From NCBI GenBank assembly GCA_044070495.1, contig JBIPSI010000008.1:111585-175584 (forward strand): 64,000 bases of DNA. The letters run 5' to 3'. The position numbers were made by a program, and so were the translations under genes. This document shows, piece after piece, positions 28,665-62,909 of the stretch. The DNA is from Spirulina sp. Its GTDB lineage: Bacteria > Cyanobacteriota > Cyanobacteriia > Phormidesmidales > Phormidesmidaceae. Every line of letters starts with the position of its first letter. Position 1 is the first letter of the stretch. Below the pieces are notes generated by a model. The model saw only the letters and a program-made list of their open reading frames with translations. It was not told the origin of the DNA and did no database searches.

Positions 28665-28716
28665 CTCACCTTTCGAGAGGCACAAGCAACACCCTAAACC
28701 CCTCTCCCAATGGCAG

Positions 28717-28881
28717 CTACAGCTTATACACATCTTGTTTTCGTGCTGCAAGTTCTCGGAGATCCCCCTAAATCCCCCTTAGGGCGGGGGACTTTGAATC
28801 CACTTCCCCCCTTCATAAGGGGGGCTAGGGGGGATCGCTTCCCTATTGCGTCTACGCCAAGGACTGGTGTGTACACAGTAG
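28717..28881. mobile_element. MITE with Tn5/IS50-like ends (copy 1), inside a hairpin repeat (28690-28953)
   Basis: End CTACAGCTTATACACATCT is 15/19 identical to the Tn5 mosaic end; other end GTGTGTACACAGTAG; degenerate flanking duplication. Confidence 0.85.
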
Positions 28882-29063
28882 CTCGATGGGAAAGGAACGT
28901 TGTAACTCCGGTTCCCCTTCGCCCTTGGGGAGAAGGGGCTAGGGGATGAGGGCGATCTTCGCAACGGTTCTTAACGAGGAAATCTGGCCTAGGGTAGAGG
29001 CATCGTAGCGGGGGCTACGGTTTTATAAAACTATCTGGCTCTGTAAAGACCGTCCCCATTTCA

Positions 29064-29092
29064 CAGATCGTCCTTGAACGATCTGCTTTTTT
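29064..29092 (+). terminator. Intrinsic terminator-like hairpin
   Basis: CAGATCGT-ccttga-ACGATCTG followed by CTTTTTT. Confidence 0.65.
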
Positions 29093-29215
29093 GTCACCCG
29101 TTCGGCCTAGGCCAAGACCTTAGTTCGAGCGACCCCGTGGGCAGCCTTGGGAGTCAGGGTTGTTCGATGGTGAGGCGTTGTTTTGCTGTTAGTTCTGTGG
29201 AAAACGTTTTGGGTG

Positions 29216-30514
29216 ATGGCTTGGCGATCCCTGCGGTCACTGTTGCGGCGGCGGTGGCGATGGATTGGCCTAGCCCTGCTGAGTAGCGCTATCTTTTGGG
29301 CCTACAGTCCAGCGGCGGTGTCGCAGTCGCCGGATCCGGTGACGGTGTCGTTTTTGGTGCGGGCGGTGGAGGCGGAACAGCTTCAGCCCATCGCCGATGC
29401 CTTCATGGCGGAAAATCCCGACATTCGCGTTGAGATTGTGCGTGGCCCCAATGCCGCCGATGCGGTGGAAAACCTCTACACCACCTCCTTTTTGCTGAAC
29501 GATTCTCCCTACGATTTGGTCTACGCCGATGTGGTGTGGATTCCCAAGTTGGCGGCGGCGGGGTGGCTGGCGGATTTGTCGGATCGGGTGGATGCTGCCG
29601 ATCTAAACGAATTCCTGGAGGCCGACATTGCGGCGGGGCAGTACCAGGGCGGGCTGTATCGAATGCCCTTTCGCTCGGATATGGGAATGCTCTACTACCG
29701 CACCGACCTGCTGGATGCTGCCGGACTCCCGGCCCCAGAAACCTTCGAGGATTTGATTGCGGCCTCCCAAACCCTTCAACAACAGGGGGACGTGCCCTGG
29801 GGCTTTGTGTGGCAGGGGTTGCAGTACGAGGGCTTGGTGACCAACTTTGTGGAAATTGTGGCGGGCTTTGGCGGCTTTTGGGTAGATGCGGATTCCCTGG
29901 AAGTCGGCCTCGATGCGCCGGAAGCCATTCAGGCCGTGGAGTTTATGCGCGGCGTGATTACCGACGGCATCACCCCCCCCGGTGTCACCAACTATTTAGA
30001 GGAAGATTCCCTGCGGCAGTTTGAGTCGGGCAATGCGGCCTTTTTGCGCAACTGGCCCTACGTCTGGGCCGAGGCCAACCGCCAGGGTTCCCCCGTAGCC
30101 GGAAACATTGCCCTGAAGCCCATGGTTCATGCCCCTGGACAGTCTCCGGCGGCTTGTTTGGGCGGCTGGGGCTTTGGTCTTTCTGCAACCAGCCCCCACC
30201 CCGACGAAGCTTGGCGAGTGGTGGACTACTTCACCAGCCCGGAGGTGATGAAGCGCTTTGTGGTGGACAACGCCTACGTGCCCAGCCGTCGCGCCCTGTT
30301 CACCGACCCGGAGGTGCTGGCGGCCTATCCCCACTTCCAACAACTGCTGGAGGTGGCGGAAACCACGGTGCCCCGTCCCCCGGTGGGCCAATACGCCCAG
30401 CTATCCGACATTTTGCAGCGCTACCTCAGTGCCGCCCTCACGGATCAACTTTCCCCAGCCGCCGCCATGGAAGCCGCCGCCCGTGAAAGTCGTCGCGTGT
30501 TGGGGACGACTTAA
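29216..30514 (+). CDS. Carbohydrate ABC transporter substrate-binding protein
   Basis: Signal peptide, LYYRTDLL, FLRNWPY, LGGWG; start uncertain (29183-29216). Confidence 0.9.
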   Translation: MAWRSLRSLLRRRWRWIGLALLSSAIFWAYSPAAVSQSPDPVTVSFLVRAVEAEQLQPIADAFMAENPDIRVEIVRGPNAADAVENLYTTSFLLNDSPYDLVYADVVWIPKLAAAGWLADLSDRVDAADLNEFLEADIAAGQYQGGLYRMPFRSDMGMLYYRTDLLDAAGLPAPETFEDLIAASQTLQQQGDVPWGFVWQGLQYEGLVTNFVEIVAGFGGFWVDADSLEVGLDAPEAIQAVEFMRGVITDGITPPGVTNYLEEDSLRQFESGNAAFLRNWPYVWAEANRQGSPVAGNIALKPMVHAPGQSPAACLGGWGFGLSATSPHPDEAWRVVDYFTSPEVMKRFVVDNAYVPSRRALFTDPEVLAAYPHFQQLLEVAETTVPRPPVGQYAQLSDILQRYLSAALTDQLSPAAAMEAAARESRRVLGTT

Positions 30515-31449
30515 TGCCGCGTACCACTCACCCTGAACCGACATCCACTGCTATGAAAGACTACATCCGCGAACGGGAACGCCGCACCGGGCTGTGGCTG
30601 ATTGCCCCCGCCTTTGCCCTGCTGCTGTTGGTCTATGCCTACCCCATCCTGCGGTCGTTTTGGCTGAGCCTGTTCACCGAGAACCTGAGCACCAACCTGT
30701 CTCCAGTGTTTAGCGGCGGCGAAAACTATATCCGCATGGTGGAAGATGGCCGTTTTTGGCAAAGTCTGGGCAATACGGCTGTTTTTACCAGCGTTTCCCT
30801 AGTGGCGGAACTGGGCCTGGGGATGATCATCGCCCTCGCCCTCAACCAAGCCTTCTTTGGCCGAGGCGGGGTGCGTACCATCGCCATTTTGCCCTGGGCC
30901 TTGCCTACGGCGCTGATTGCCCTGGCTTGGCGCTGGATTTTTAACGACGAATTCGGCGTCTGGAACGACCTGCTGCTGCGGCTGCAAATCATTGGCAACC
31001 CCGTCAACTGGCTGGGCGACCCCAACTGGGCCATGGTGGCCGTGATCGCCGCCGATGTGTGGAAGACCACCTCCTTTGTGGCCATTCTGCTGCTGGCCGG
31101 GTTGCAGTCCATCCCTCAAGATTTGTACGAAGCCCACGCCCTGGATGGGGCCACCCCCTGGCAAAGCTTTCGCCAAATTACCCTGCCCCTCATTGCCCCC
31201 CAAATCCTGATCGCCCTGCTGTTCCGCTTTGCCCAAGCCTTCGGCATTTTCGACCTGATCCAGGTCATGACCAACGGCGGCCCCGGCGGTGCCACGGAAA
31301 TGGTGTCGATCTATATCTATGCCACCGTCATGCGCTACCTCGACTTCGGCTATGGTGCCGCCCTGGTGGTGGTGACGTTCTTGATTTTGATTGCCGTCGT
31401 CGCCCTCGCCGCTGTCTACCTCTCCCGCCTCCGCGCCAAAACCGAGTGA
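30514..31449 (+). CDS. Carbohydrate ABC transporter permease (MalF-like)
   Basis: EAA loop LYEAHALDGA, DVWKTT. Confidence 0.92.
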   Translation: MPRTTHPEPTSTAMKDYIRERERRTGLWLIAPAFALLLLVYAYPILRSFWLSLFTENLSTNLSPVFSGGENYIRMVEDGRFWQSLGNTAVFTSVSLVAELGLGMIIALALNQAFFGRGGVRTIAILPWALPTALIALAWRWIFNDEFGVWNDLLLRLQIIGNPVNWLGDPNWAMVAVIAADVWKTTSFVAILLLAGLQSIPQDLYEAHALDGATPWQSFRQITLPLIAPQILIALLFRFAQAFGIFDLIQVMTNGGPGGATEMVSIYIYATVMRYLDFGYGAALVVVTFLILIAVVALAAVYLSRLRAKTE

Positions 31450-31473
31450 CCCTGTAGACTGCGGCCACAACCA

Positions 31474-31588
31474 CCAGGGAACGAATTCCCTGGCTTACCG
31501 CACAAGTCTGCCAAAGCAGACTAATACGCTCACCCCCCAATCCTCTTTAGAGGATTTCTGCCCTCAGCTAAGGACTTCCAGTCCTTGG
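31474..31588. repeat. Four-hairpin palindromic element within the ABC operon
   Basis: CCAGGGAA/TTCCCTGG, AGTCTGC/GCAGACT, AATCCTCT/AGAGGATT, AAGGACT/AGTCCTT. Confidence 0.7.
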
Positions 31589-31625
31589 CCCCTTGGCCCC
31601 CCAGAAACTCTACCCCCTCACCCCC

Positions 31626-32504
31626 ATGACCACCCATCCACCCACCACCTCTCCACCCCCCACCCGCGCCCTGCCCTGGATGCGAATCCTGCTGTGGACT
31701 GCCGTGGGCTTTACGGTGTTGTTTAGCCTTGGCCCGGTGCTGTGGCAGGTGTTGACCTCGATTAAAACCAACGATGCCATTACCCAAACCCCGGTGGTGT
31801 ACTTTCCGGGGCTGGATCAGCTCACGTTGGATCACTACCTGGATTTGTTTCGGCGCAATCGGTTTTACCTCTATATGGGTAACAGCGCCTTGGTGTCGGT
31901 GATTTCGACCGGGCTGTGCTTGGCCCTAGGTTCCCCCGCCGCCTATGCCCTAGCGCGATTGCGGGTGCCGGGGAAGCAGATCCTTCTAGCCCTGGTGCTG
32001 GTGGTGACCTTGTTTCCCTACATCCTTTTATTTTTGGGATTGCTGGAACTGGTGCGACTGCTGGGCTGGGCTAACAATTACCTGGCGCTGATTGTGCCCT
32101 ACACCGCCATCAACCTGCCTCTAACGATTTTGGTGATGCGAAGCTTTTTCCAGCAGTTGCCTAGGGATTTGGAAGATTCCGCCAAGGTAGACGGCTACAA
32201 CACCCTGCAAATGCTCCAGCAAATTCTGCTGCCCATGACCCTCCCCGCCCTCGTCACCACGGGCATCCTCACCTTCATCTTTGCCTGGAATGAATACCTC
32301 TTTGCCCTCACCTTCATGACCCGCGAATCCATGAAGACCATCCCCGTCGCCGCCGCCCAACTGGGGGGCACCACCCTATTTGAAGTGCCCTACGGCCCCC
32401 TCGCCGCCGCCACCGTCGTTGGCACCCTGCCCCTAGTGCTGCTAGTGCTGTTCTTCCAACGCCGCATCGTCCAAGGCTTAACCGCAGGCTCAGTCAAGGG
32501 ATAA
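31626..32504 (+). CDS. Carbohydrate ABC transporter permease (MalG-like)
   Basis: LEDSAKVDG, AWNEYLFA, QRRIVQGLTAGSVKG. Confidence 0.92.
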   Translation: MTTHPPTTSPPPTRALPWMRILLWTAVGFTVLFSLGPVLWQVLTSIKTNDAITQTPVVYFPGLDQLTLDHYLDLFRRNRFYLYMGNSALVSVISTGLCLALGSPAAYALARLRVPGKQILLALVLVVTLFPYILLFLGLLELVRLLGWANNYLALIVPYTAINLPLTILVMRSFFQQLPRDLEDSAKVDGYNTLQMLQQILLPMTLPALVTTGILTFIFAWNEYLFALTFMTRESMKTIPVAAAQLGGTTLFEVPYGPLAAATVVGTLPLVLLVLFFQRRIVQGLTAGSVKG

Positions 32505-32516
32505 CAAATTTTTAGA

Positions 32517-32670
32517 AACTCAACCCTCAACCCCTAACCTTCAATCCCCAACCTCCAACCTCAAATCTCGAACCCTCAACCTTTAACCCTCAACCTTTAA
32601 CCTTCAACTTTCAATCTTTAACCCTCAACCTTTAACCTTCAACCTTCAAACCCTCAACCCCCAACCCCCA
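32517..32670 (+). repeat. Heptamer tandem repeat tract (AACCYTY), STRR-like
   Basis: About 20 degenerate AACCCTC/AACCTTT/AACCTTC units between permease and ATPase genes. Confidence 0.85.
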
Positions 32671-32672
32671 CC

Positions 32673-33743
32673 ATGGCCAAACTCGAACTCAAAAACCTCC
32701 GCAAAGCCTACAGCGACACCATTGTTCCGGTGAAGGACATCAGCCTCACCGTCACCGACGACGAATTTCTCACCCTGGTGGGGCCATCGGGCTGTGGCAA
32801 ATCCACCATTCTGCGGCTGATTGCCGGATTGGAACAGCCCACCCAAGGCCAGGTGCAGATTGGCGAGCGCGACGTTAGCCCCCTGCCACCCGGAGATCGC
32901 AACATTGCCATGGTGTTCCAAAGCTACGCCCTCTACCCCCACATGACGGTGCAGCAAAACATCGCCTCTGGCCTGAAGCTGCGTAACTTGGCCGGGGGCG
33001 ACATCCAAAAGCGCGTCCACGAAGCCTCTAGCCTGCTGGGGCTGGATGACCTCCTCGACCGCAAACCCGCCAAGCTCTCCGGGGGGCAACGGCAGCGGGT
33101 GGCCCTAGCCCGTGCCCTAGTGCGCCAGCCCGATGTGTTCCTGCTGGATGAACCCCTCAGCAACCTCGATGCCCTGCTGCGGGAACAGGTGCGGGCCGAC
33201 CTCAAACAGCTCTTTGCCGACCAAAAATCCCCCACCATCTACGTCACCCACGACCAAACCGAGGCCATGACCCTCTCGACGAAGGTGGCGGTGCTGAACG
33301 ATGGCTATCTGCAACAACTGGGTAGCCCAGAGGAGATCTACAAACGCCCCGCCAACCGCTTTGTGGCTGGATTCATCGGCAGCCCCCAAATGAATTTGCT
33401 GACCTGTGATCGTTCGGGCCAAACGGCCATCCTGGGCGAAACCCCCATCACCGCCCCCATGCCCCTGCCCGACCACAGTACCGTGGTGCTGGGGCTGCGG
33501 CCTGAGGATGTGCGCCTACCCCGCCAGGGCGACTCGATTCTTCTACGCGGCAATGTGTTTTTGGTGGAAAATCTAGGCATGGCCAACCTGGTCAGCCTGC
33601 ACCTGAAGGGCGACCCCCAAACCACCCTCCGCACCCTCCTCCCCGCCGACGCCACCTGGAGCCGCGAAAACCTAGAACTCGCCATTGCCCCCGACGCCCT
33701 TCACTGGTTCAATGCCGAAACGGGCCAGCGGTTGGGAGTTTAG
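32673..33743 (+). CDS. Carbohydrate ABC transporter ATP-binding protein (MalK-like)
   Basis: GPSGCGKS, FQSYALYPH, LSGGQRQR, DEPLSNLD, YVTHDQ. Confidence 0.94.
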   Translation: MAKLELKNLRKAYSDTIVPVKDISLTVTDDEFLTLVGPSGCGKSTILRLIAGLEQPTQGQVQIGERDVSPLPPGDRNIAMVFQSYALYPHMTVQQNIASGLKLRNLAGGDIQKRVHEASSLLGLDDLLDRKPAKLSGGQRQRVALARALVRQPDVFLLDEPLSNLDALLREQVRADLKQLFADQKSPTIYVTHDQTEAMTLSTKVAVLNDGYLQQLGSPEEIYKRPANRFVAGFIGSPQMNLLTCDRSGQTAILGETPITAPMPLPDHSTVVLGLRPEDVRLPRQGDSILLRGNVFLVENLGMANLVSLHLKGDPQTTLRTLLPADATWSRENLELAIAPDALHWFNAETGQRLGV

Positions 33744-33812
33744 GGAAAAGTTGGGCTGGTTGAACCACAAAAGATTTTGCATCGGGTGCGGAAACCGCTC
33801 CCCCACCGTATT

Positions 33813-33978
33813 CTACTAAGTACACATAAGTCCTTAACGTAGACGATACAGGGAATCGATCCCCCCTAGCCCCCCTTAAAAAGGGGGGGAACCGGAGTCA
33901 AAGTCCCCCTTTTTAAGGAGGATTTAGGGGGATCTCCAAGGACTTGCGGTATGAAAGCAAGATGTGTGTACTTAGTAG
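33813..33978. mobile_element. MITE with Tn5/IS50-like ends (copy 2) with a perfect 11-bp target duplication
   Basis: TIR CTACTAAGTACACA / TGTGTACTTAGTAG; CCCACCGTATT at 33802-33812 and 33979-33989. Confidence 0.9.
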
Positions 33979-34133
33979 CCCACCGTATTGGGATGATGGC
34001 GTGGGCAGGTCTCCTGACCCTTGGATGGATATGGATTCTAGCAAGTTTTGTCCGGCAATCAGGGAGTTGGGGATGAGGGCAGACCACTTTTGTCAGCCCA
34101 CTAGATTCATATCCAAGGGGAGGTCTTATTAGG

Positions 34134-34670
34134 GTGGTTTTTTATAAGTCGGTCACAGTACATAGGAATCCCAACCTGGATATCATCAAGATTTCAAGCC
34201 AGCCTGAAGCATTTTCCATCGTTTTCTTCATAGCGTTGCTGATTGGGATTGTTTCACTACCCTTCACTGAATATCGGAATAATTACATGGCGTATATTGG
34301 CCTGCTCTATCCGATAGGATTAGTGGTGGGCTATTTTATTCTAAGCACCCAGGATGCCAAATTTGAGAACAAGACCAAAGTAAGCATTAGAAAAGGCTTC
34401 GACACTTGGAGCATACCCTTCGAGACTGTGACGGGCGGCTATGCCTCGTGCAGAGTGAAAACTTCCCAAGCCAGCTTAATCAAAACATATTATCTAGACT
34501 TTGAATTAAGGGTCAACCTGCCCGACAATAAGAAGTACAGCATTAGAAATGGCACAGCGAATATCTTTCACTATGGTTTTAGCCAGTGGGGAAAGGAGCA
34601 AGAAAAGATTTGGGCAAAATTTAATGAAATTCTTGACGAAAAAGGTATATCAAATCTCACCCTAGAATGA
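34134..34670 (+). CDS. Hypothetical membrane protein (two TM helices), low GC
   Basis: 178-aa ORF with two hydrophobic segments. Confidence 0.6.
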   Translation: MVFYKSVTVHRNPNLDIIKISSQPEAFSIVFFIALLIGIVSLPFTEYRNNYMAYIGLLYPIGLVVGYFILSTQDAKFENKTKVSIRKGFDTWSIPFETVTGGYASCRVKTSQASLIKTYYLDFELRVNLPDNKKYSIRNGTANIFHYGFSQWGKEQEKIWAKFNEILDEKGISNLTLE

Positions 34671-34680
34671 GGACTATTCA

Positions 34681-35223
34681 ATGTCTGATGAAAGAATACA
34701 AGCCCTAAATACCCTATTCTGGTTCGGCCTTGGACTGGGTGCCTTAGGAGGACTATTCAGCGTTTTCGGCATATATTTTCTTTTTACTGCGAATGAGTCA
34801 TGGTCATGGCCATCCGTAGAAGGCTCTGTTGTTAATTCTGAGGTTCGCAGGGACATTTCTTTACGACATAGCACCGCCGGAACCACAAGAAAAACCCACA
34901 CTAAGTATTATGTATCGGTTAACTATACCTATGATGTTGAAGGCACTTCCTATTTATCTTCCCGCTATTCCCTTGGCCAAGGTGATCGTGTTAGTCGCAC
35001 CTACAAAGATCGTTCTGATGCCGAAGCAGAAGCGGAATCTCGCTTTCCAGAAGGTACTACCGTCACCGTCCATTACGATCCTAAGCAACCCACCGAAGCG
35101 GTTCTTGCCGCCGGGTGGAACTGGGGGACATTTGTGCCCCTCTTAATGGGGATCTTTTTAGGTGGGTCGGGGTGGCTATTCTACGCCGTTAGCCGATCCA
35201 CAAATGTGACTTCAGGGCAATAA
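34681..35223 (+). CDS. DUF3592-like membrane protein
   Basis: TM, SWPSVEG, YTYDVEG, VTVHYDPKQP, TM architecture; GAGG upstream. Confidence 0.78.
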   Translation: MSDERIQALNTLFWFGLGLGALGGLFSVFGIYFLFTANESWSWPSVEGSVVNSEVRRDISLRHSTAGTTRKTHTKYYVSVNYTYDVEGTSYLSSRYSLGQGDRVSRTYKDRSDAEAEAESRFPEGTTVTVHYDPKQPTEAVLAAGWNWGTFVPLLMGIFLGGSGWLFYAVSRSTNVTSGQ

Positions 35224-35301
35224 GTCAGGGCAATAAGTCAGGACAGTAAACTTTCAGGACAATCAACCTTCAGGACAGTCACCTTTCGGGACAATAACCT
35301 T
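35212..35301 (+). repeat. Tandem repeat (2 x 13 bp then 4 x 16 bp, core TCAGGRCA)
   Basis: TCAGGGCAATAAG x2; TCAGGACAGTAAACTT; TCAGGACAATCAACCT; TCAGGACAGTCACCTT; TCGGGACAATAACCTT. Confidence 0.85.
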
Positions 35302-35345
35302 AGCGTGATCGCCCATCTTTCTTCCTTCGGCAGCAGTGATTAACC

Positions 35346-35744
35346 ATGGCTCCCATCGCTCTCGCCCTCAACATCGTCGCGCTATGTGTCACCTTGGCGG
35401 GGGTAGAAACGCTGCACGGCATTCTTCGTAATGCGTTGGTGGCTCCCAAAATTGGCACCAAACGGGCCAAAAAGCTAAGCTTAATCAGCGGCACCATCCT
35501 GCTGTTTATCGTGTGCTACCTTTGGGTGCCTCGGTTGGGCTTGGTCAGTCCTGGATCTCTACTCGCCCTGGGCCTCCTGCTTGCCATCTTCATGGCCCTG
35601 TTTGATATGCTGCTGGGCCACTACATCATCAAGCTCCGCTGGCGGGTAATCTTGAAGGACTTCGACCCTCGCCAGGGCAACTATTTGATATTTGGCTTGC
35701 TGGTGTTGGTGTTCATCCCTCTGGTGGTGATGGCGATACATTAA
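35346..35744 (+). CDS. Hypothetical 4-TM membrane protein
   Basis: 132-aa hydrophobic ORF with ETLHGILR and FD..LG motifs. Confidence 0.7.
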   Translation: MAPIALALNIVALCVTLAGVETLHGILRNALVAPKIGTKRAKKLSLISGTILLFIVCYLWVPRLGLVSPGSLLALGLLLAIFMALFDMLLGHYIIKLRWRVILKDFDPRQGNYLIFGLLVLVFIPLVVMAIH

Positions 35745-35774
35745 AGGACTTGCGCCGACTCAGCCCACCCCACA

Positions 35775-41559: not shown

Positions 41560-41583
41560 CCCCCAGCCCCTTTCCCAAGAGGG

Positions 41584-41879
41584 CTGCTGTGTACACATAA
41601 GTCTTGACGTAGACGATATAGGGGTTCGATCCCCCCTAGCCCCCCTTAAGAAGGGGGGAACCGGAATCAAAGTCCCCCTTTTTATAGACGCTTGCGGCTT
41701 CCCGCAGGGTAGGGGGATTTAGGGGGATCTCCAAGGACTTGCGGCCTAAAAACAAGATGTGTATACACAGTAGCCCAGGGCGGGAGAGAGAGCCGGAAAG
41801 TCTTGTTTGGCCTCCCTCTCGCCCAAAAATGGGCGAGAGGGACTGAGGGGGTGAGGGCCGAGATGTGTGTACACAGTAG
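41584..41879. mobile_element. Composite MITE with Tn5/IS50-like ends (copy 3; one left end, two right ends)
   Basis: Left end CTGCTGTGTACACATAAGT; right ends finishing at 41773 and 41879; flanks CCCAAGAGGG / CCCAGGAGGG. Confidence 0.85.
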
Positions 41880-42243
41880 CCCAGGAGGGAGAGGGGAACT
41901 GGATTGGTTCAGGTGTTGTTGCAAGAACCGCCAGGGTTGTCCATGGGCAAAGTCACCCTCAGCACTAGGAAACTACGTTAAGACTTGGGCCGGATTGTCA
42001 GGGGCGATACGGTCGTGGTGGGTGGCCCTTGCTAGGGTAGAGGGGTATTCTCTAGCCACAAAATACCTTTCGGTTCAGTGTTTTAATACCTTAGCGACCT
42101 TTTGTTGCTTCCACTACCTTTTCAGCGCATTTAGGTTTTGAGCGCACATTTAACTTTATTACGTTCCCCCCTGTAGGCATTAAAAATAAAAAAGAGGGAA
42201 CTATAACAGTGGTTGACCTTTCACTTCAGGATACGTACAGGTC

Positions 42244-48699: not shown

Positions 48700-50187
48700 G
48701 TGAGTTCTATGCGGCAATGTTGGTGTGGAAATAATCAGTTCATCCCCTTCGGGCCTGAGTATGGAGAATGCCGAGTGTGTGGCACCCTGGTTTCGCTCAA
48801 TTCCCTATCCGACGAAGAACTGGTCGTGAAGGATGATGAAACCGACTTCTATGGCAAGCAATATTGGTTGCAGCATCAGGATCAAGATTTAGGGTTTCCT
48901 GACATTCATGCCCGTGCCCGCTATGATCTGACAGAGCGTAATCTCCACTGGCTGAAAACGCTTCTGCGCTATAGTTTGCCACCGGCCAAGGTGCTGGAAC
49001 TGGGCTGTAGCCACGGTAGCTTTGTGGCGCTGATGCAGCAAACGGGCTACGCGGCGGCGGGGCTGGAGATGAGCCAGTGGGTGGTCTCCTTTGGCCAAGA
49101 CACCTTTGGTATCCCCATGCATCTAGGGCCGGTGGAGGAAACCGATATCCCCCCAGGAAGTCTAGATGTCATTGCTTTGATGGACGTTCTAGAGCATTTA
49201 CCCGATCCAGAGGCAACGTTGAGGCACTGCGCTAAGTTGCTCAAATCCGATGGGTTTTTACTGATTCAAACCCCCCACTACCAGCCAGAAGTCACCTATC
49301 AAGATCTAGAGGCCTCGCAGTCGCGATTTTTAGAACAGCTTAAGGCCGATGAGCATTTGTACTTGTTTAGCCAGGGGGCGGTTCAGGCCTGTCTCAAACG
49401 GGCTGGATTCGAGCATGTGTATTACGAACCGGCCATTTTTGACGTTTACGATATGGCCCTGATTGCCAGCAAGGTGCCCCGTACCCCTAACGCCCAAGCC
49501 ACCATTGAAGCGGCACTGTTGTCCCATCCCCACAGCCGCATGAGTCTGGCTCTGCTAGATTTGCGGGAGCGAGAACTTGCCCTGCTAAGGGACTTGGACG
49601 ACTCTCGCAAAGACGGGGCAGATCGCCTCAAGCAAATTCATGTCCTCACCGCCCAGTTGCAAGAGTCGCAGCAGGATCGGGCGGATCGCCTTCAGCAGGT
49701 GCATACCCTGACGGCACAGTTGCAGGCATCAGAACAGGATCGCGCCGATCGCCTTGAGCAAGTTCAGACCCTGACTCAGTTGTTGCAGGTGTCGGAACAG
49801 GATCGCGCCGATCGGCTCCAGCAAATTCAGACCCTGACCCAGCAATTGCGGGAGTCGGAGCAGGAGCGAGAGTCGAGCCTGAAGCAGATGTGTATTCTGT
49901 TGCAGCAGTTCCAGCAGTCCATGCAGGAACGTCAGGCTTTGAGGGAAGAGGTAGATCGATTGACCCAAGGCTGGCAGGACGCTGATCGGGATCGGGCGGA
50001 GTACCTTACCCAGGTTCAGCATCTCACGCACTATGTGAAGGACTTGGAGGAAAAACTGACCCACCAGCAATCCCACCTGCAAACTCTCCAGCAAATGTTG
50101 CAGGAGTCGGAACAGGATCGAGCGGCGCGGTTTGATCAGATCCAGGCGCTAACGAATTGGCTGAAGGAAGCGCGGGGCGAAGCCTAG
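48700..50187 (+). CDS. Class I SAM methyltransferase with N-terminal Cys motif and C-terminal 21-aa coiled-coil repeats
   Basis: CWC..CRVC, VLELGCSHG, DVLEHL, IQTP; SEQDRADRLQQIQTLTQQL repeats. Confidence 0.85.
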   Translation: MSSMRQCWCGNNQFIPFGPEYGECRVCGTLVSLNSLSDEELVVKDDETDFYGKQYWLQHQDQDLGFPDIHARARYDLTERNLHWLKTLLRYSLPPAKVLELGCSHGSFVALMQQTGYAAAGLEMSQWVVSFGQDTFGIPMHLGPVEETDIPPGSLDVIALMDVLEHLPDPEATLRHCAKLLKSDGFLLIQTPHYQPEVTYQDLEASQSRFLEQLKADEHLYLFSQGAVQACLKRAGFEHVYYEPAIFDVYDMALIASKVPRTPNAQATIEAALLSHPHSRMSLALLDLRERELALLRDLDDSRKDGADRLKQIHVLTAQLQESQQDRADRLQQVHTLTAQLQASEQDRADRLEQVQTLTQLLQVSEQDRADRLQQIQTLTQQLRESEQERESSLKQMCILLQQFQQSMQERQALREEVDRLTQGWQDADRDRAEYLTQVQHLTHYVKDLEEKLTHQQSHLQTLQQMLQESEQDRAARFDQIQALTNWLKEARGEA

Positions 50188-55860: not shown

Positions 55861-55961
55861 GGGTAAACCTAGGGGAAACCGGGGGCTAGTCATCGGCAGG
55901 GGTGATCGGGGCGGACATTCCGAACAGGTGGCCGATGCCCATCCCTCCGTGGCGGACAGGA

Positions 55962-56159
55962 TTAGTCGGCGTCGGCGTCATCGGCGTTGACCTTGGGAAT
56001 AAAGTCGGGCTTATCTTTGTTTTCCCAGCCGGGGGGGCGCTTGGAGTTGTACCAGGCAATGGATCCGATGCTGATGGCGGCGATGAAGCCCACAACATAG
56101 ACCAGCACAAAGGAGGATGGGAGACCGCTACTACCGGCCACGCCAAGGGAAAAAACCAT
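55962..56159 (-). CDS. psb35: Photosystem II assembly factor Psb35
   Basis: TM followed by GSIAWYNSKRPPGWE..PD..PKV signature; GGAG upstream of ATG 56159. Confidence 0.82.
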   Translation of the reverse strand: MVFSLGVAGSSGLPSSFVLVYVVGFIAAISIGSIAWYNSKRPPGWENKDKPDFIPKVNADDADAD

Positions 56160-56217
56160 GGTGACTTGCACTCCACACTAGAGGGATGGGCATACCAAAT
56201 TATAGAGGACAGACGGC

Positions 56218-58755
56218 CTAGCCTACCTTGGGAGTCAGGGCCGCCTTGGGGTAGGCGATGCGCTTGTGGTTATACTGCTGCCACACCTGCACAAAAATAT
56301 CGGCAATCACCGTCATGTGTTCGCGGGTGAGGCCCGACTCCACCAGTTGATTATCTTTCCAGCGGGCGCGGAGGATGCGGTTTACCATCGCCAGGGCCTC
56401 GTCGGGGGTGGCATCGGTGAGGGAACGCAGGGCCGCTTCGCAGGAATCCGCCAGCATGACAATGCCCGTTTCTGGCGATTGGGGTACGGGGCCATCGTAG
56501 CGGAAATCGGATTCCTTGACGGTGATGGAGGAATCCGCTTCGGCCATTTCCTGGGCCTGGTGATGGAAGTAGCTGATTAGCATGGTGCCCTGGTGTTCTG
56601 GAATGAAGGCTCGCAGCGCCTTGGGTAGACGGCATTTACGCGCCATCACCAGGCCCTCACTGACGTGGCGCTTGATAATCGTGGCACTGAGCCAGGGATC
56701 GTTGAGTTGGTCGTGTTTGTTGGGGCCACCCATCTGGTTTTCAATGAAGCCCAGGGGGTCGTGCATTTTGCCGATGTCGTGGTAGAGGGTGCCCGCCCGC
56801 ACCAGTTCCACATTGCAGCCCAGGGCGCGGGCCGCTGCCTCGGCTAGGCTAGCCACAAACAGGGTGTGCTGAAAGGTACCGGGGGCTTCCGAAGCCAGCC
56901 GCTTTAAAAGGGGACGGTTGGGGTTCGAGAGTTCGGCCAATCGGATGGGGGTGACCAGGTCAAACACATGCTCTAGATACGGGCTGATGCCCAGGGCCAC
57001 GATGCTGGAAAGGACGCCGTAGATACCCTGCATGGCGGATCCGGCCAAAATTCCAGACCAGGCCAACAGCAGCGACACCGGATTGACCATCACCGTCAGC
57101 AGCAGGTAGACCACGCCCTGGGTAAGCCCGACGCCACCGCCCAACAGGGCCAGTTCCTCGCGGGAACGCATCCGCCCCGCCAGCAAACTACAAACCATGG
57201 CCCCCGCCACCCCCGCCACCCAAGAAACCCCACTCACCGTGGATCCGACGGGCAACAGTAGCGCCAATATTCCGATCAGGGTTCCCCCCAGCCTTGGCCC
57301 ATAGAAACTGCCAGCCAACAGCCCAATGGCAGGCAAGCCATAGGCTGCAACGCCCAGGGTGTTGAGGATGCCCGTGCTCGTGACCATGGCGGTAATCAAC
57401 ACGTAGTCCTGCTGGCGGAGATGGTGCGGGCTCCAGCGCTCGACGAGTAAAAACACACCAATGCCGCCCCCAACTAGGCCACCAAACAGGGCCAGTCCCC
57501 AAATGTTAAAGCGACGCTGACTGAGGTTGAAATGATCCAGCAGCGCAAAGTGGCTTGGGGTAATGCTTTCCCCCGCCGCCACAATGATATCGCCCTGGCG
57601 AATATCGACAATGACCGGCTTCACGGCTTCAGCGGCCAGATCGGCCTTGAGGCGCGTTTGGTCAGAATCCTCAATCAGATTCGGCTGAAGCACCATTTGC
57701 AACAGTTGGCTGGCGATCTCCTCCCCCGGACGAGGCACCGTGCCCTTCAACTGCATTTGAGTGGCGCGATAGATCACCTCAGGGGACAGTCCAGGTGTGA
57801 TCCCTTGGGCCAGCATCCGCTCTGCGGCTCGCCGTACCCCAAGCTGGGTGCTCGTCCATTGTTCAGGGGTGAGATCTAGCGCCGTTGGCGAATAGGTTAT
57901 CCCCTCCACCTGACTAGAGAGCAGGGCCAAATTAGATTGGGCCTGCTGGTAGCTTTGGCGAGCTTGTTCCACTTGGTCAAGCAGGGCGTTGAACTCCTGC
58001 ACGGAGGATCGCTGGGAATAGTTCCAGAGTTCGCCCAAGGCCTTTTGCTGAAAGGGGGTCAGGGTTTGCCCCTGGGTTAAGCTGGCGAGGCTGAGGGTGC
58101 CTCCCTGGGCTGGGTCGGCATCAATTTCCCCTAGGGGTGAAACCAAGCTGCGCAACTTCAGCCAGGTGGCATCGTTGGATCGACGGAGATCGCCCTGAAC
58201 CTGGGTTGAGAGGACATTGGTGGGAACAAAGGGCAGCGGGCCAGCTTCCCGTCGCAGGGTAGATAGCTGGGCGATCAAATTATTCAGGGAACGTAGGGCG
58301 GCATCCGCGACCGTCGGGTCTACCGTAAGCACTCGGAGCGTTCCATTACGGGCGTCGCGACGCCGTTCCTCAGTGGTTTGTTTATCTTCCACCGACGCAT
58401 CGGCAGGGGCGATCACGGTCTCCGGAGCAACGCTGCCAACCTGCAAACCAGGCTGGTTGTAGAACCGTTGGCCGAGCACCGCTGTCAGCCCTAGGGTGGT
58501 GAGAAGAATCGCCAGACGGGGATGACGAATATGGCGATAGCGCTTCGTGGTACGGCAGGGCGAGGGCCGCCTGGATCCCTTAGGGCTATCCAAGCCAGAG
58601 ACTACAGAATTCCCCAGACCTTCGGCACCCAGGTTAGGTAAAACCCCTTGTGACCGGGAGCTCCAGAACGGCTTCGTCCGCAGTTGAGCTACGGCCTCAG
58701 GCGCTGTCGAGATCCAGTTCTCAATGGCGACGACAAGTTCCTTAAGCGCTCTCAT
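56218..58755 (-). CDS. 7TM-HD (HDIG) phosphohydrolase, PgpH-like
   Basis: Extracellular domain, multi-TM block, APGTFQH, YHDIGK, EHQGT, MLADSCEAA. Confidence 0.88.
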   Translation of the reverse strand: MRALKELVVAIENWISTAPEAVAQLRTKPFWSSRSQGVLPNLGAEGLGNSVVSGLDSPKGSRRPSPCRTTKRYRHIRHPRLAILLTTLGLTAVLGQRFYNQPGLQVGSVAPETVIAPADASVEDKQTTEERRRDARNGTLRVLTVDPTVADAALRSLNNLIAQLSTLRREAGPLPFVPTNVLSTQVQGDLRRSNDATWLKLRSLVSPLGEIDADPAQGGTLSLASLTQGQTLTPFQQKALGELWNYSQRSSVQEFNALLDQVEQARQSYQQAQSNLALLSSQVEGITYSPTALDLTPEQWTSTQLGVRRAAERMLAQGITPGLSPEVIYRATQMQLKGTVPRPGEEIASQLLQMVLQPNLIEDSDQTRLKADLAAEAVKPVIVDIRQGDIIVAAGESITPSHFALLDHFNLSQRRFNIWGLALFGGLVGGGIGVFLLVERWSPHHLRQQDYVLITAMVTSTGILNTLGVAAYGLPAIGLLAGSFYGPRLGGTLIGILALLLPVGSTVSGVSWVAGVAGAMVCSLLAGRMRSREELALLGGGVGLTQGVVYLLLTVMVNPVSLLLAWSGILAGSAMQGIYGVLSSIVALGISPYLEHVFDLVTPIRLAELSNPNRPLLKRLASEAPGTFQHTLFVASLAEAAARALGCNVELVRAGTLYHDIGKMHDPLGFIENQMGGPNKHDQLNDPWLSATIIKRHVSEGLVMARKCRLPKALRAFIPEHQGTMLISYFHHQAQEMAEADSSITVKESDFRYDGPVPQSPETGIVMLADSCEAALRSLTDATPDEALAMVNRILRARWKDNQLVESGLTREHMTVIADIFVQVWQQYNHKRIAYPKAALTPKVG

Positions 58756-58874
58756 AGGCTAGGTTGGCTAAGCAATTGGGCGCAGAAAACCAGCAGGACG
58801 ATGATATCTGGCCAGAGCCCGACTTTCCAGCAACGCCCTAGACCACCCCAGGATCTGTAGCCATTATAGGCCGT

Positions 58875-59657
58875 TCATCGATGGGCCGGAGGTGATCCAG
58901 CCCACCGTTGGTGGAGGGCGTCGGCCAAGGCGTCAAGGTCTGTGACCCCATATCCCCGCCAGCGTGGCCCTAGGGTAGGCTCTCTATGGTCTATGGAGCT
59001 ATCCATCATCTGTCCATCCATGATCAGATGTCCTATCGCCTGGAGGGGCATCCCCCCAGGGCCAGCCTGGATCGTCGCCCAGACCCCCACCAAGGCCAGG
59101 GCCGTTGCAGGCCAACCCCACCGCTGAGCTAGGGTTAGGGGGGCTATCCACTGCCCTGGCAGTGATGCTACCAAGGCCCAAAGATCCGCGACCTTGGGGA
59201 ACTCCTGCTCTGACGGTTCCCAGGGTCGGTTCTCCCACGATGACGGCCTGATTGCCTGCCCTTGGCCCAAACGTTGAAAATACCCATCGAGGGCCGCAAG
59301 GGTAGACGGCCCGAAGCCTAGGGTTGCGCCCCAGTCCTGGATGGTCAACCGGCGATGACCGTAGGGATTGGCATTGATTAGCAGGATGGGCGTAGCCAAG
59401 ATTAGCGTCACGAACGCTTGATCCTGGGTCGGTAGAGGATCCATCATCCCTAGGGCCGTCTGCCACGTCTCTGCCCCCACCGCTTTCCCGGCGGCACAGG
59501 CTTCGGCAATGGTGAGAAACGCCTCTGGCCACCGCCCTACGGCCCTGGAGCTAGCCCCCCCTATGCGCTGCGCCCAGCTATCTGCCATGGCCAGGCTGCG
59601 CACGATAGGTCGAAAGCCCAGAGGCCCTTGGTTCACAGTTCTTTCCTCCCCCGACAT
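58875..59657 (-). CDS. Hypothetical protein (possibly degenerate ADP-ribosylglycohydrolase-like)
   Basis: 260-aa ORF with C-terminal LADALHQRWAG; family call is weak. Confidence 0.55.
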   Translation of the reverse strand: MSGEERTVNQGPLGFRPIVRSLAMADSWAQRIGGASSRAVGRWPEAFLTIAEACAAGKAVGAETWQTALGMMDPLPTQDQAFVTLILATPILLINANPYGHRRLTIQDWGATLGFGPSTLAALDGYFQRLGQGQAIRPSSWENRPWEPSEQEFPKVADLWALVASLPGQWIAPLTLAQRWGWPATALALVGVWATIQAGPGGMPLQAIGHLIMDGQMMDSSIDHREPTLGPRWRGYGVTDLDALADALHQRWAGSPPAHR

Positions 59658-59845
59658 ATCCCTAGATCCCTCAACCTGTTCCCTCCATCGGTCTCCCTAC
59701 GCTATCACCCAGAGCCCGGAACGGGTTCCCCGATCAACCGAAGATGATCGGTCTATAATGGCTCTCGACAAACCCCCTAGGGTGCCTTGGTCTACCCCCT
59801 CGCGCCCGCCGATCTGCCCCGTTGCAGCCCCCTGGAGCCACCGTC

Positions 59846-60625
59846 ATGTTCTATCACCATCGTTTTTTTCGCCACCCTGTTACCCTGGGGTCTATACGCT
59901 GTCTTGGACTGGCTGCGCTGTTGACGATAGGCATGGATTTAGATAAGCACACCTGGGCACAGGAACCGACCCCTAATATCGAGAACAGCATTCCTGCAAA
60001 CCCCACAACCAGCGGCGGACGGATTGTGCGGCCCACCCTACGCCTAGGCAGTCAAGGGGAATCGGTGCGCGAACTTCAGTCGATGCTCGTTTTGCTGGGC
60101 TATTACGCAGGGCCAGTTTCCGGGGTGTATCAAGAAGATACCCAACTGGCCGTGCAGCGCTTCCAACAAGCCGCCGCCATCACCGCCGACGGCATTGTCG
60201 GCCCCGCCACCTGGAGCAAACTCCTACCCGCCCCCGCCGCAGAGATCACCCCTCCCGGCCAAACCGTCGCAACCAATCCACCCGCCACCAATCCACCCAC
60301 CGCTAATCCGGCCCCCGCCAACCCACCGGCCACCAACCCACCGGCCACCAACCCACCGGCTACGAATTCTCGACCTACCAGTCCCTCTACTACCACTGCA
60401 CCCCCAGACAGCACCTCCACTAGCCTGCCCATCCTGCGCCCCGGCATGGAAGGGGAAGCGGTGCGCTTTTTGCAGCAACGACTGACGGCCAAGCGGGTCT
60501 ATAGCGGCCCCATTAGCGGCATCTTTGGCCCCCAAACCGAGGCGGCGGTACGGCAGCTTCAGCGCGACAACAGCCTGACGGTAGACGGCATTGTTGGCCC
60601 CGCCACCTGGGGCGTCTTGAATTAG
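59846..60625 (+). CDS. Peptidoglycan-binding protein with two PG_binding_1 domains and an ATNPP repeat linker
   Basis: LRLGSQGESVRELQ..DGIVGPATW occurs twice; 15-bp repeats near 60268-60365. Confidence 0.88.
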   Translation: MFYHHRFFRHPVTLGSIRCLGLAALLTIGMDLDKHTWAQEPTPNIENSIPANPTTSGGRIVRPTLRLGSQGESVRELQSMLVLLGYYAGPVSGVYQEDTQLAVQRFQQAAAITADGIVGPATWSKLLPAPAAEITPPGQTVATNPPATNPPTANPAPANPPATNPPATNPPATNSRPTSPSTTTAPPDSTSTSLPILRPGMEGEAVRFLQQRLTAKRVYSGPISGIFGPQTEAAVRQLQRDNSLTVDGIVGPATWGVLN

Positions 60626-60902
60626 CTAAGGTTATCCCTAGGTCGGTACGATGGTTCAAAGGTAGAACTCATGGGATGGGCCACGCTGCGCTAATCCATC
60701 CTAGACAAGGCTTTGATGGGTTACGGCCAGGTCTAATGCAACCTGCCCAAGACGCCCTCAAGAGGTCGCCAACCCACCCATGGGCAAAGGGGATTGAAGA
60801 CGCAACCCATGTTCTGTTTAGCCGAGTTTTACCGCTCTATAGCCAAGCTAAACCAGGCCATTAAGCTTCTACCACTCGGCTTTAGCGTGTATTTCTTTAA
60901 AA

Positions 60903-60974
60903 CTCCCCAGGTAGGATTCGAACCTACGACCAATCGGTTAACAGCCGACCGCTCTACCACTGAGCTACTGAGGA
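60903..60974 (-). tRNA. trnN: tRNA-Asn (GTT)
   Basis: TCCTCAGTAGCTCAGTGGTAGAGCGGTCGGCTGTTAACCGATTGGTCGTAGGTTCGAATCCTACCTGGGGAG cloverleaf; CCA not encoded. Confidence 0.97.
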
Positions 60975-61058
60975 TTAAGTCGAAACTAATAGTAACGAGA
61001 AAAGCTGTCCTTTGACAACCCCTTTCCAGAAAAAATCTGTGCTACCTCAGATCCTCCT

Positions 61059-61087
61059 GTACGGGCGCACTGCTGTGCGCCCCAACC
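61059..61087. repeat. REP-like palindrome
   Basis: GTACGGGCGCACTGCTGTGCGCCCCAACC; partner at 16520-16548. Confidence 0.75.
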
Positions 61088-61115
61088 CTGGCCCCAATCC
61101 CCTGGATCCAATCCC

Positions 61116-61664
61116 CTAGCCCCAGTGGCCAAATCGCAGGCGCATCAGTTTTTCTTGGGCTTCTTGGTTCAGGCCACTCATCAACGAACGGTTGGCGGGC
61201 TGGGGGCGGCGGGGGCGGCGGCGCAGACTTTGCTGGTGAATTAGGTGAATATCGCTTTCGAGCTGGCGTGCCGACATCCATTCGGCCCCGTAGCCCGTCA
61301 CGGTGAGCTGATGGACGCGGTCTGAGGTGGCGACGATGACCCGATGGTTGCGGCGGGATTGGTGCATGAGCCTAGCGCAGACCTTTTCAATATAGGTATC
61401 GGCGGTTTGGCCAAAGTCGGTGTAGTGTACCGAGAGCCGATCGGTGATAACCTCTTGGACGCTGGGCGATTGCACCCCGTGGGCATCAAACACCAGGTGG
61501 GTATCTAACCCTTTGCGGGCACTGTAGTTGGCGAGGATTTCAATCAACTCACGGCGGGCCGCATCAAAGCCATCCTGCTGCTTTTTTTGCACCAACAGAG
61601 GCCATGCGCCGATCATGTTGTAACCATCCACTAATAGCTTGGCAATGCAATCGTTCCGCTCCAT
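61116..61664 (-). CDS. NYN-domain ribonuclease (YacP/Rae1 family)
   Basis: LLVDGYN, VFDA, TADTYIE, VATSD. Confidence 0.9.
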   Translation of the reverse strand: MERNDCIAKLLVDGYNMIGAWPLLVQKKQQDGFDAARRELIEILANYSARKGLDTHLVFDAHGVQSPSVQEVITDRLSVHYTDFGQTADTYIEKVCARLMHQSRRNHRVIVATSDRVHQLTVTGYGAEWMSARQLESDIHLIHQQSLRRRPRRPQPANRSLMSGLNQEAQEKLMRLRFGHWG

Positions 61665-61861
61665 GGCCCCATCCCCCCCGCCCCAAGGTTACATAACGAC
61701 ATAATCCCTTAATCTAATCTTACCGGGGATACCTAGCCTTTGGGGTGACCTAAAGTACAAGCCCTCACCCTCCTCTTAAATAGGTCAGATCACGTAGGGT
61801 ACATAACGCTAAGGCGAGACTAGGTCAACGCGAAGCCATGCACCACCGCGAAGCCATGTAC

Positions 61862-62536
61862 CTAAGCCGCCTGTAACAACGCCTTCAACCGTTCAGGGCT
61901 ACCCTCGTCGGTGACTTGACCCGATTGCAGCAGAAAGGCTCGGTCGCAATAGTCCAATTCCACTAGGCGATGGGTGACCCACAGGGCCGTGAGTCCTCGT
62001 TCCTTCACCAGTTTTCGTACCCGTTTTACCAGGTCAATTTGGCTGTCGGGATCCAATAGGGCGGTGGGTTCATCCAGCAGCAGCACATGGCAGTGGCGGG
62101 CGATGGCTCCGGCAATGGCCACCCGCTGCTTTTGGCCGCCGCTGAGGGCGTAGATGGGACGGCGCTTGAGGTCGAGCAAATTAATGGCGGCGAGGGCATC
62201 GTCTACCCGGTTGCGAATTTCCGCCAGGGGCAGCTTTTCTTCCACCAAGCCAAAGGCGACATCGGCTCCCACCGTGGGCATCACCAGTTGATGATCGGGG
62301 TTTTGAAACACAAAACCAACCGGAGATTCAATGAACCACTCCCCCGCCTGGGGCTTCAGCAACCCACCCAAAACCCGCAGCAGGGTAGATTTACCGCTGC
62401 CGTTGTTGCCCAGCAGCATACAAAACTCCCCCCGCTCCACCGTCAGGGAACAGTTCTGCAAGACGGGCTGACCAGAGGGCCAGTGAAATTGCAGGTTGTG
62501 AACGGCGATGGCGGCATTGGGATGGGTGGCAGTCAT
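61862..62536 (-). CDS. ECF-type ABC ATP-binding protein (EcfA/CbiO-like)
   Basis: GNNGSGKST, FQNPDHQ, LSGGQKQR, DEPT. Confidence 0.88.
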   Translation of the reverse strand: MTATHPNAAIAVHNLQFHWPSGQPVLQNCSLTVERGEFCMLLGNNGSGKSTLLRVLGGLLKPQAGEWFIESPVGFVFQNPDHQLVMPTVGADVAFGLVEEKLPLAEIRNRVDDALAAINLLDLKRRPIYALSGGQKQRVAIAGAIARHCHVLLLDEPTALLDPDSQIDLVKRVRKLVKERGLTALWVTHRLVELDYCDRAFLLQSGQVTDEGSPERLKALLQAA

Positions 62537-62623
62537 GGGCCGATCAAGGTATTTCAGTCTCGGTGGATTCGTGGATTATAAGAACCCCTGCACGCCCTCA
62601 CCCTAGATCCCTCTCCCCACGGG

Positions 62624-62787
62624 CTACCGCTTATACATCAGTCTCTATTGCGCCTGATGCCTGGGGTTGATCCCCCCTAGCCCCCCTTGTAAAGGGGGGA
62701 GCGAGATTCAAAGTCCCCATTTATAAGAGGGATTTAGGGGGATCTCCCAGGTATGACGGCAAAAAACAAGATGTGTATAAACAGTAG
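62624..62787. mobile_element. MITE with Tn5/IS50-like ends (copy 4), inside a hairpin repeat (62594-62861)
   Basis: Ends CTACCGCTTATACA / AGATGTGTATAAACAGTAG; flanks CCCCACGGG / CCCCATGGG. Confidence 0.88.
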
Positions 62788-62909
62788 CCCCATGGGAGAG
62801 GGACTTTGAGGACTGTTTCCGGCTCCCCTCTCCTCGTGGGAGAGGGGCTGGGGGTGAGGGCTAGAGGTCAGAATAGCGTATTTGTAACCTGCGACGTAAT
62901 CTACAAAAG

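Follow-up and report, generated by a model that had tools for sequence, protein, structure and literature searches.

Non-coding elements of a Spirulina genome share their ends with an insertion sequence of Tn5-related transposase and lie chiefly in hairpin loops

Introduction

How do short mobile elements come to lie, again and again, inside the hairpins of other dispersed repeats? The question is raised by a 64,000-nucleotide stretch of the cyanobacterium Spirulina sp. (assembly GCA_044070495.1, contig JBIPSI010000008.1, positions 111,585 to 175,584, forward strand), which we call the window. A first-pass annotation of the window, made from its letters alone, described four related non-coding elements with CTAC..TACACA ends, suggested that a Tn5-like transposase encoded elsewhere inserts them preferentially into CCC..GGG hairpins, and named purifying selection alone as the alternative. 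That inference stands overall. We judge it likely, with a probability of about 80%, that the elements are miniature transposable elements with inverted repeats (MITEs) of an insertion sequence (IS) whose Tn5-homologous transposase prefers hairpin loops.

A family of short elements with Tn5-like ends

All four elements are present in the window where they had been placed (Table 1). The genome that holds them, G000, comprises 5.31 Mb in 74 contigs (assembly 97% complete); its closest congener, G050, is 88-92% identical in the flanking genes. The genome-wide BLASTN comparison proposed as a check was run with the four window copies and gave 172 merged regions, 73 of them at least 140 bp long. A profile built from 42 full copies then returned 276 non-redundant matches: 48 two-ended, 27 left-end-only, 20 right-end-only, and 181 core-only. 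The family therefore has 48 two-ended copies, for which target sites and duplication lengths were tabulated.

The consensus element is 165 bp long, with ends CTAC(TAAG/TGTG/CGCT)TA(C/T)ACA; the left end goes on ..(T/C)AAGTC and the right end, read inward, ..CATCTTG, so that the terminal inverted repeats are CTAC..TACACA / TGTGTA..GTAG. The alignment of 42 copies shows short, non-coding elements of 164-190 bp whose interior is a hairpin repeat. Thirteen of these copies form a young subfamily, A, with CTACTAAGTACACA ends and a median pairwise identity of 97.6%; the remaining 29 are older, with a median of 81%. As had been claimed, the end at 28717 matches the Tn5 mosaic end at 15/19 positions, and positions 7-19 are identical. 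Every one of the 48 right ends matches the mosaic end at 11/19 or better, eight of them at 15, a score reached by none of 200,000 random genomic 19-mers.

Most insertions split hairpins, near the dyad

Inspection of the flanks agrees with the duplication lengths reported for the four window copies. Across 46 copies (those cut by contig ends excluded), 12 are bounded by perfect direct duplications (11 bp in five, 10 bp in another five, 9 bp in two), and five more by near-perfect ones of 9-10 bp with one mismatch. The duplication of 9 bp that is known for Tn5 is present in some cases, but the range is 9-11 bp and most are 10 or 11. Loops and duplications differ from copy to copy, e.g. CCCACAGGGAG, CCCACCGGGAG, CCCAAGCTGGG, CTCCCTCCTGG, and CCCCAAGGG; since the duplicated sequences vary, the insertions were independent.

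Stems were scored for the 45 copies with 30-base flanks on both sides. A stem of at least 8 bp with at most one mismatch runs across the insertion point in 32 of them, against 7.8% of 20,000 random positions outside long open reading frames (ORFs) (binomial tail 1e-25), which makes a MITE about nine times likelier to lie across a stem than random non-ORF DNA. A perfect stem of at least 7 bp spans the insertion point in 24/45 copies versus 1.7% of 20,000 random genome positions. The proposed preference for CCC..GGG hairpins is borne out by these figures, and the contrary outcome, hairpin insertions no commoner than the share of intergenic DNA predicts, is far from the roughly ninefold excess found. 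Three window copies split a C-rich/G-rich hairpin, as stated; the site of copy 2 reads CCC-N8-GGG and forms no stem.

At the junctions, 35/45 copies carry CCCTCTCCC/GGGAGAGGG arms, 4/45 carry CCCCCC/GGGGGG, and 6/45 carry neither; GGG is the triplet beside the left end in 19/48 copies, and CCC that beside the right end in 27/48. The usual host is a repeat of about 95 bases with the layout GCCCTCACCC..CCCTCTCCC-loop-GGGAGAGGG..linker..CCCTCTCCC-loop-GGGAGAGGG..GGGTGAGGGC, predicted to fold into an outer stem and two hairpins (-33 kcal/mol, DNA parameters). It is interrupted at a constant position, as indicated by the CCCTCTCCC-type arm at the junction of 35/45 MITE copies and of all three copies of the IS in G050 that is described below. 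Free hairpins of the target type number 109 (strict pattern) to 198 (relaxed pattern) in G000. By an arithmetic estimate, their loops sum to a few kb, well under 1% of neutral space, where non-ORF DNA totals 0.90 Mb.

The insertions are also symmetric. Counting MITEs, IS, and relatives together, 25 sites have a perfect duplication, and 19 of these have a stem of at least 6 bp. The centre of the duplication coincides with the dyad in 11 of the 19 and lies at most one base off in 17.

An empty site, which the first-pass annotation had recommended seeking, exists for copy 4: the orthologous locus in G050 holds the double-hairpin repeat without a MITE. The repeat lies in opposite orientations at this shared intergenic site (window 62594-62861 versus G050:C1:4201234-4201384). 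Copies 1-3 have no clean empty allele in G050, where synteny is broken or the region rearranged.

Double-hairpin repeats of this kind form two families of about 80-95 bases that share one architecture, with an outer stem, two hairpins, and a central ..CCGGA..TCAAAGT.. linker, and differ in stem sequence. They occur in the window at 62594-62861, 28690-28953, and 15207-15242, and elsewhere in G000 at C1:224635-224731. One of the two families is present across many cyanobacterial genera, and in Proteobacteria, related IS are bordered by closely similar CCCTCACCCC..CCCTCTCCC-loop-GGGAGAGGG arms.

The parent insertion sequence and its transposase

The predicted Tn5-like transposase was found in congeners, bounded by the same ends, and not in the G000 assembly, which gave 0 matches and only a 58-codon remnant of a different Tn5-like IS. 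In G050, three weak DDE matches each lie 811 bp from an exact match to the MITE left end. They mark an IS of 1,486 bp in three identical copies with a 17-base inverted repeat, CTACTAAGTACACACAA, which also occurs in G068, G017, G045, and other genomes. Its first 14 terminal bases are those of MITE subfamily A, and the left end agrees at 20/20 bases for G017 and locus L103. Both ends of the IS and of the MITEs begin CTAC..., that is, they have 5'-CT extremities.

The transposase ORF has 463 codons and its stop codon lies inside the IS right end. Against solved Tn5 transposase chains (4dm0, 1muh, and others), the protein aligns over residues 35-459 to 51-459 with E = 2.3e-38; the positions opposite the catalytic D, D, and E are conserved, and YRWRWQIEQFFALLK fits the Y-2-R-3-E-6-K (YREK) pattern. 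Pfam models recognise DDE_Tnp_1 (33.8 bits), while the Tn5 dimerisation model PF02281 (E 0.033) and the Tn5 N-terminal model PF14706 on two frame pieces (E 0.21 and 0.081) stay below cut-off.

The sites of this IS resemble those of the MITEs. All three G050 copies lie in hairpin loops, two with perfect 11-bp duplications (CCCAGGACGGG and CCCAGGGCGGG), and copies in G068, G045, and G063 are likewise flanked by hairpin arms. Of 53 genomes of the genus, 19 contain relatives of the transposase; G000, G005, G019, G067, and G043 are not among them. Full MITEs with ends were seen only inside the genus, in G000, G005, G019, G067, G052, G050, and G043. The G000 MITEs are orphans, immobile unless a transposase copy is hidden in an assembly gap.

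The N-terminus of the transposase (first 24-26 codons, ..AFGDxRLxKRG), where the Tn5-type DNA-binding region starts, is out of frame with the main ORF. A conserved A4-6 G5 run marks the break in 8/8 cyanobacterial copies examined, whose proteins are 66-100% identical; in four distant relatives it is a run of A8 or A7, and six others read through in one frame. Frame-break loci are L069:418-531 and 447-1835 (the G050 IS), L073, L074, L075, L076, L103, L105, L107, L109, L112, L123, and L147. Of the two weak PF14706 matches, that on the upstream piece covers profile positions 7-20 and that on the main ORF positions 24-58. The break resembles programmed slippage or frameshifting as a control on full-length transposase.

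Relatives in other genomes

A wider scan of species-representative genomes found 59 loci with transposase relatives, 21 of them with both flanks. At 58-87% identity, relatives occur in Nodosilinea, Tildeniella, Kaiparowitsia, Leptolyngbyaceae, Elainellales, and Synechococcales; those at 34-47% identity come from Proteobacteria and Calothrix and have ends such as CTAATCTATGCACACATCTT. In Proteobacteria, these distant relatives too are inserted in the loops of palindromes and make duplications of 9-10 bp. A stem of at least 8 bp crosses the insertion point in 15 of the 21 loci, and nine have perfect duplications, whose lengths are 9 bp (three loci), 10 bp (five), and 11 bp (one). The palindromes entered by these relatives are unrelated in sequence, e.g. 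TTCCCGC-GCAG-GCGGGAA.

Inverted flanks were noted at L113, where the inversion reaches 30 bases, at L101 (the G068 copy), and at L021 and L036 (G018). The flanks of two G018 copies look exchanged, as if by an inversion between them, and we tentatively attribute the inverted flanks, those of L113 apart, to recombination between copies.

Other candidate partners were rejected. Six PF01609 matches in G000 comprise an IS4-family element at C51:237-1555, whose ends are related but different (CCTGACTGCCTGACA..), and other IS types; PF02281 matched nothing in G000, and neither did it match the control, so that this search is uninformative. In G005, a decayed fragment of a transposase (C56) is not bounded by such ends, and the solo ends at C17:18464 and C5:121504 are not those of an IS. 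An end-pattern search in G005, G067, G019, G052, and G043 gave 66 ends and no inverted pair 1-2.5 kb apart.

A second Tn5-like IS was also set aside as the partner; its ends are not identical to the MITE left ends, matching them at 16/22 by eye. These ends read CTATCC.TTA..CAAAAGTC, and the element carries PF14706 and PF02281. Its insertions, with duplications of 9-10 bp, are in the hairpins CCCCCC-loop-GGGGGG and CCCCTCC-TT-GGAGGGG, and the genomes with this IS lacked full MITEs within the searches run. Among the 14 matches listed, 10 have an in-frame TAA six codons past the ATG, inside the DNA-binding domain match, and the other four have TGA, no stop, or TAG plus TAA; loci with an in-frame stop include L017:~1660-1680 (-), L021:~1495-1520, L019:~1493-1515, and L020, the G000 C1 remnant. 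That remnant, at C1:222143-222430, is all that G000 retains of this IS and is joined to a 31-base MITE end. Over C1:222134-222430 (L020:1444-1790), the MITE left end abuts the second IS, of which the end and a remnant of the N-terminus are present in reverse, with a CCCTCTCCC-type arm on one side and a CCCCCC-type arm on the other. The locus is a rearrangement junction between two mobile elements.

MITE interiors, composites, and other features of the window

The interior of the MITE is not derived from the IS. Profile positions of about 45-125 form the second double-hairpin repeat, laid out as GATCCCCCCTAG-CCCCCCTT-loop-GGGGGG..CCCCC-loop-GGGGG-ATTTAGGGGGATC and predicted to fold at -23 kcal/mol (DNA parameters). 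This repeat stands alone, free of MITE ends, 181 times in G000, and in a sample of 41 genomes it was found in 9 of 17 genera at 80-92% identity.

In a second MITE type, it is the CCCTCTCCC repeat that the same ends enclose. One full copy is known (C13:148119-148295, 177 bp, 10-bp duplication), and a fragment lies in the window at 41774-41879. There, the two copies of the duplication lie just outside 41584 (left end) and 41879 (outer right end), so the inserted unit was a three-ended composite of 296 bp; two G050 IS copies are nested in the second MITE type, an arrangement that explains the composite.

Copies 2 and 3 lie where G000 and G050 differ. Beside copy 3, at about 41900-41975, lies the remnant of a gene that is intact in G050 (C1:~3128860-3129290); about 330 bp of its 5' part are missing in G000 and replaced by the MITE composite. 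This loss is an element-associated deletion. Between the two genes that bound window 33743-35346, G000 has about 1.6 kb versus 127 bp in G050; MITE copy 2 opens the extra DNA, in which two small ORFs (34134-34670 and 34681-35223) also lie. Elsewhere in G000, a hairpin loop at C17:18464 contains a solo MITE-type left end, after which come two short ORFs resembling a toxin-antitoxin pair; no right end was found within 3 kb. An Rfam scan of the whole window returned a tRNA only; the repeats match no curated RNA family.

Table 1. Mobile elements, duplications, and repeats located in the window (positions count from its first letter)
Feature	Position	Strand	Remarks
Solo core repeat (profile positions 45-125)	25776..25847	+	no transposon ends; profile match
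MITE copy 1	28717..28881	-	165 bp; old; duplication degenerate; splits decayed hairpin repeat spanning 28690-28953
Left copy of duplication CCCACCGTATT, MITE copy 2	33802..33812		perfect, 11 bp; right copy at 33979-33989
MITE copy 2	33813..33978	+	166 bp; young subfamily A, CTACTAAGTACACA ends; no hairpin at site
Duplication of composite 41584-41879, CCCAAGAGGG / CCCAGGAGGG	41574-41583 / 41880-41889		10 bp, one mismatch
MITE copy 3	41584..41773	+	190 bp including 25-bp internal insertion; inner part of three-ended composite
Right part of second MITE type	41774..41879	+	same ends, hairpin-repeat interior; ends in second right end
Host double-hairpin repeat (GCCCTCACCC ... GGGTGAGGGC)	62594..62861		split by copy 4; uninterrupted in G050 orthologue
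Duplication of copy 4, CCCCACGGG / CCCCATGGG	62615-62623 / 62788-62796		9 bp, one mismatch
MITE copy 4	62624..62787	+	164 bp; in first loop of double-hairpin repeat
7-base periodic C/A-rich array	32508-32668
63-base repeats	49592-50153
15-base repeats	60275-60364
tRNA gene	60903-60974	-

How the insertions may arise

By homology to Tn5, a transposase dimer would bind the two ends, excise the element by cut-and-paste, and capture the target. The two active sites would attack one strand each, placed symmetrically on either side of the dyad with 9-11 bp between them, and gap repair would yield the duplication. A two-fold symmetric complex may favour a two-fold symmetric target, in which the duplicated stretch is C-rich at its start and G-rich at its end (CCC...GGG). 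Such a choice of target would steer insertions to intergenic repeats and away from genes. A symmetric complex preferring short GC-rich palindromes would account together for the position in the loop, the dyad-centred duplications, the 9-11 bp stagger, and the recurrence of the pattern in IS, MITEs, and distant relatives.

Several points weigh against this explanation. No transposition has been observed, and its basis throughout is the comparison of sequences. The G000 assembly lacks the transposase, and mobilisation in trans is deduced here from congeners. IS and MITE are alike in their termini only (about 14-20 bases), the MITE right end departing after 16-17. Most of the older copies (median identity 81%) have no recognisable duplication, 13/45 copies lack a stem of at least 8 bp, and a few IS copies (L101, L113, G018) have inverted, not direct, flanking repeats. 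At least two clean insertions (33813 and C28:31090) lie outside complete hairpins, which indicates that the hairpin is preferred and not required. Finally, what is recognised may be the sequence of the duplex, an extruded cruciform, or a protein of the host; the data are compatible with each.

The last point bears on the rival that survives best, namely that the transposase reads the structure of DNA, as an extruded cruciform or a single-strand hairpin at the replication fork, rather than a symmetric duplex sequence. Relatives across phyla hit unrelated stems (CCCTCTCCC/GGGAGAGGG, TTCCCGC/GCGGGAA, and CGTCCCCGC/GCGGGGACG), both repeat types are predicted to be stable as single strands (-33 and -23 kcal/mol), and the duplication varies from 9 to 11 bp at like sites, all of which suits recognition of shape. 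However, clean insertions at stemless sites have CCC opening the duplication (33802-33812; C28:31090), and divergent transposases could each read a sequence of their own. We regard structural recognition as rather unlikely, though a serious candidate.

Much less probable is a host protein that sits on the hairpin repeats and tethers the transposition complex. The conservation of the target repeats across many cyanobacterial genera (the core at 80-92% identity in other families) suggests a function, perhaps the binding of a protein, yet distant hosts with different palindromes behave alike and would each need a separate tether, and no candidate protein has been identified.

The two remaining rivals we consider very improbable. 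If the hairpin repeat were itself mobile, a MITE could ride inside it and hitch-hike to higher copy number; the double-hairpin repeats are indeed numerous and widespread, and that at the copy-4 locus is inverted between G000 and G050 and so is dynamic in some way, but loops and duplications vary between copies, MITEs have entered either hairpin of the repeat, another repeat type, and, with clean duplications, sites outside repeats, and the orthologous G050 repeat has no MITE. Random insertion with survival only at harmless sites such as other repeats, i.e. purifying selection alone, draws on a survivorship bias that is certain to some extent for 48 two-ended copies found by sequence alone, and on non-ORF DNA so rich in hairpins that 7.8% of random sites pass the stem test; against it, 32/45 copies lie across a stem although 0.90 Mb of neutral DNA stands beside a few kb of loops, selection would not centre 17/19 duplications within one base of the dyad, and three identical, hence very recent, G050 IS copies are all in loops.

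A broader reading can be put forward tentatively, as a possibility that we would not yet favour. A Tn5-related clade, extending from filamentous cyanobacteria to Proteobacteria, may be intrinsically loop-specific for short GC-rich palindromes and cut symmetrically about the dyad. Its expression may in addition be throttled by recoding: a conserved recoding site in the DNA-binding N-terminus would give full-length protein only after slippage and otherwise a truncated product resembling the Tn5 inhibitor. MITE interiors, which carry fresh hairpin targets, may then let the family spread its own landing pads.

Relation to known systems

The published accounts cited here (PMC2266710, PMC1525189, and PMC3733652) are drawn on in part, and what is said of them holds for those parts. 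Members of the IS50 subgroup combine a DDE transposase bearing Y-2-R-3-E-6-K with 5'-CT extremities and a duplication of about one helical turn (PMC2266710). The present elements share the near-whole-length homology of the transposase to that of IS50/Tn5, DDE and YREK included, ends that begin 5'-CT, and duplications near one helical turn (here 9-11 bp). Some MITE right ends are also identical to the mosaic end at positions 7-19, and the ORF enters the right end. They differ from IS50/Tn5 in duplications that are mostly 10-11 bp rather than a fixed 9; in a strong preference for palindrome loops, where that of Tn5 is weak (PMC1525189); and in an N-terminal DNA-binding part that lies in another frame, with the Pfam Tn5 N-terminal and dimerisation models below threshold. 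A transposase gene free of frameshifts is a hallmark of the IS4 family (PMC2266710), and a frame break is found in all 8 cyanobacterial copies examined. We therefore call the element a Tn5-group variant rather than a plain member of the IS50 subgroup.

Insertion into palindromes is itself well documented. IS1397, ISKpn1, ISPsy8, IS621, ISPpu9/10, and ISRm22 target repetitive extragenic palindromic (REP) sequences (Tobes & Pareja 2006, PMC1525189), and palindrome-targeting families comprise IS3, IS110, IS4, IS256, and IS5 (PMC1525189). As in those elements, all or most copies here occupy a fixed point of a dispersed palindrome and the target can be rebuilt from the duplications (PMC1525189); the difference is that here mainly MITEs are involved and the behaviour extends across phyla. 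ISRm22, of the IS4 family, likewise inserts at the palindrome axis (PMC1525189), but it has 6-bp repeats and belongs to subgroup IS4Sa (PMC2266710), unlike the Tn5 group with 9-11 bp described here. In the part of PMC2266710 drawn on, striking conservation of target arms is described for subgroup IS4 and ISRm22 and not for subgroup IS50. Our literature search, to which ISfinder and the supplementary target-site and end figures of PMC2266710 were external (figures that may bear on the point), turned up no IS or MITE of the Tn5/IS50 group described as targeting palindromic repeats. As far as that search goes, IS that target palindromic repeats are known, and the Tn5-group case is apparently new.

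Bacterial MITEs, including the cyanobacterial Nezha (PMC3733652), are likewise small and non-coding, with terminal inverted repeats, duplications, many copies, and ends shared with an IS. The present family differs in that its interior is a separate double-hairpin repeat, not the remnant of a deleted IS, and in that its second type carries the target hairpin itself; the comparison is one of general features. The GTAG-tagged REPs (GTAG-23, T. roseum; PMC3733652) resemble our elements as GTAG-ended repeats inside GC-rich palindromes that are also free in hundreds. However, they measure 20-40 bp and are linked to a tyrosine transposase (PMC3733652), whereas CTAC/GTAG here tips the 17-base inverted repeat of a DDE IS, and the common tetranucleotide looks coincidental.

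Implications

Genetics and sequencing-library preparation use Tn5 as their standard near-random transposase. If natural relatives of it follow a sharp, symmetric target rule, they would show how the same fold acquires target choice, and would supply enzymes and targets to test. In terms of genome biology, an IS family can reach dozens of copies in a compact genome with little damage to genes by nesting in intergenic hairpin repeats, and MITEs can persist as orphans after their transposase is gone. That such elements drive rearrangements too is shown by the nested and three-ended composites and by the truncated gene beside copy 3.

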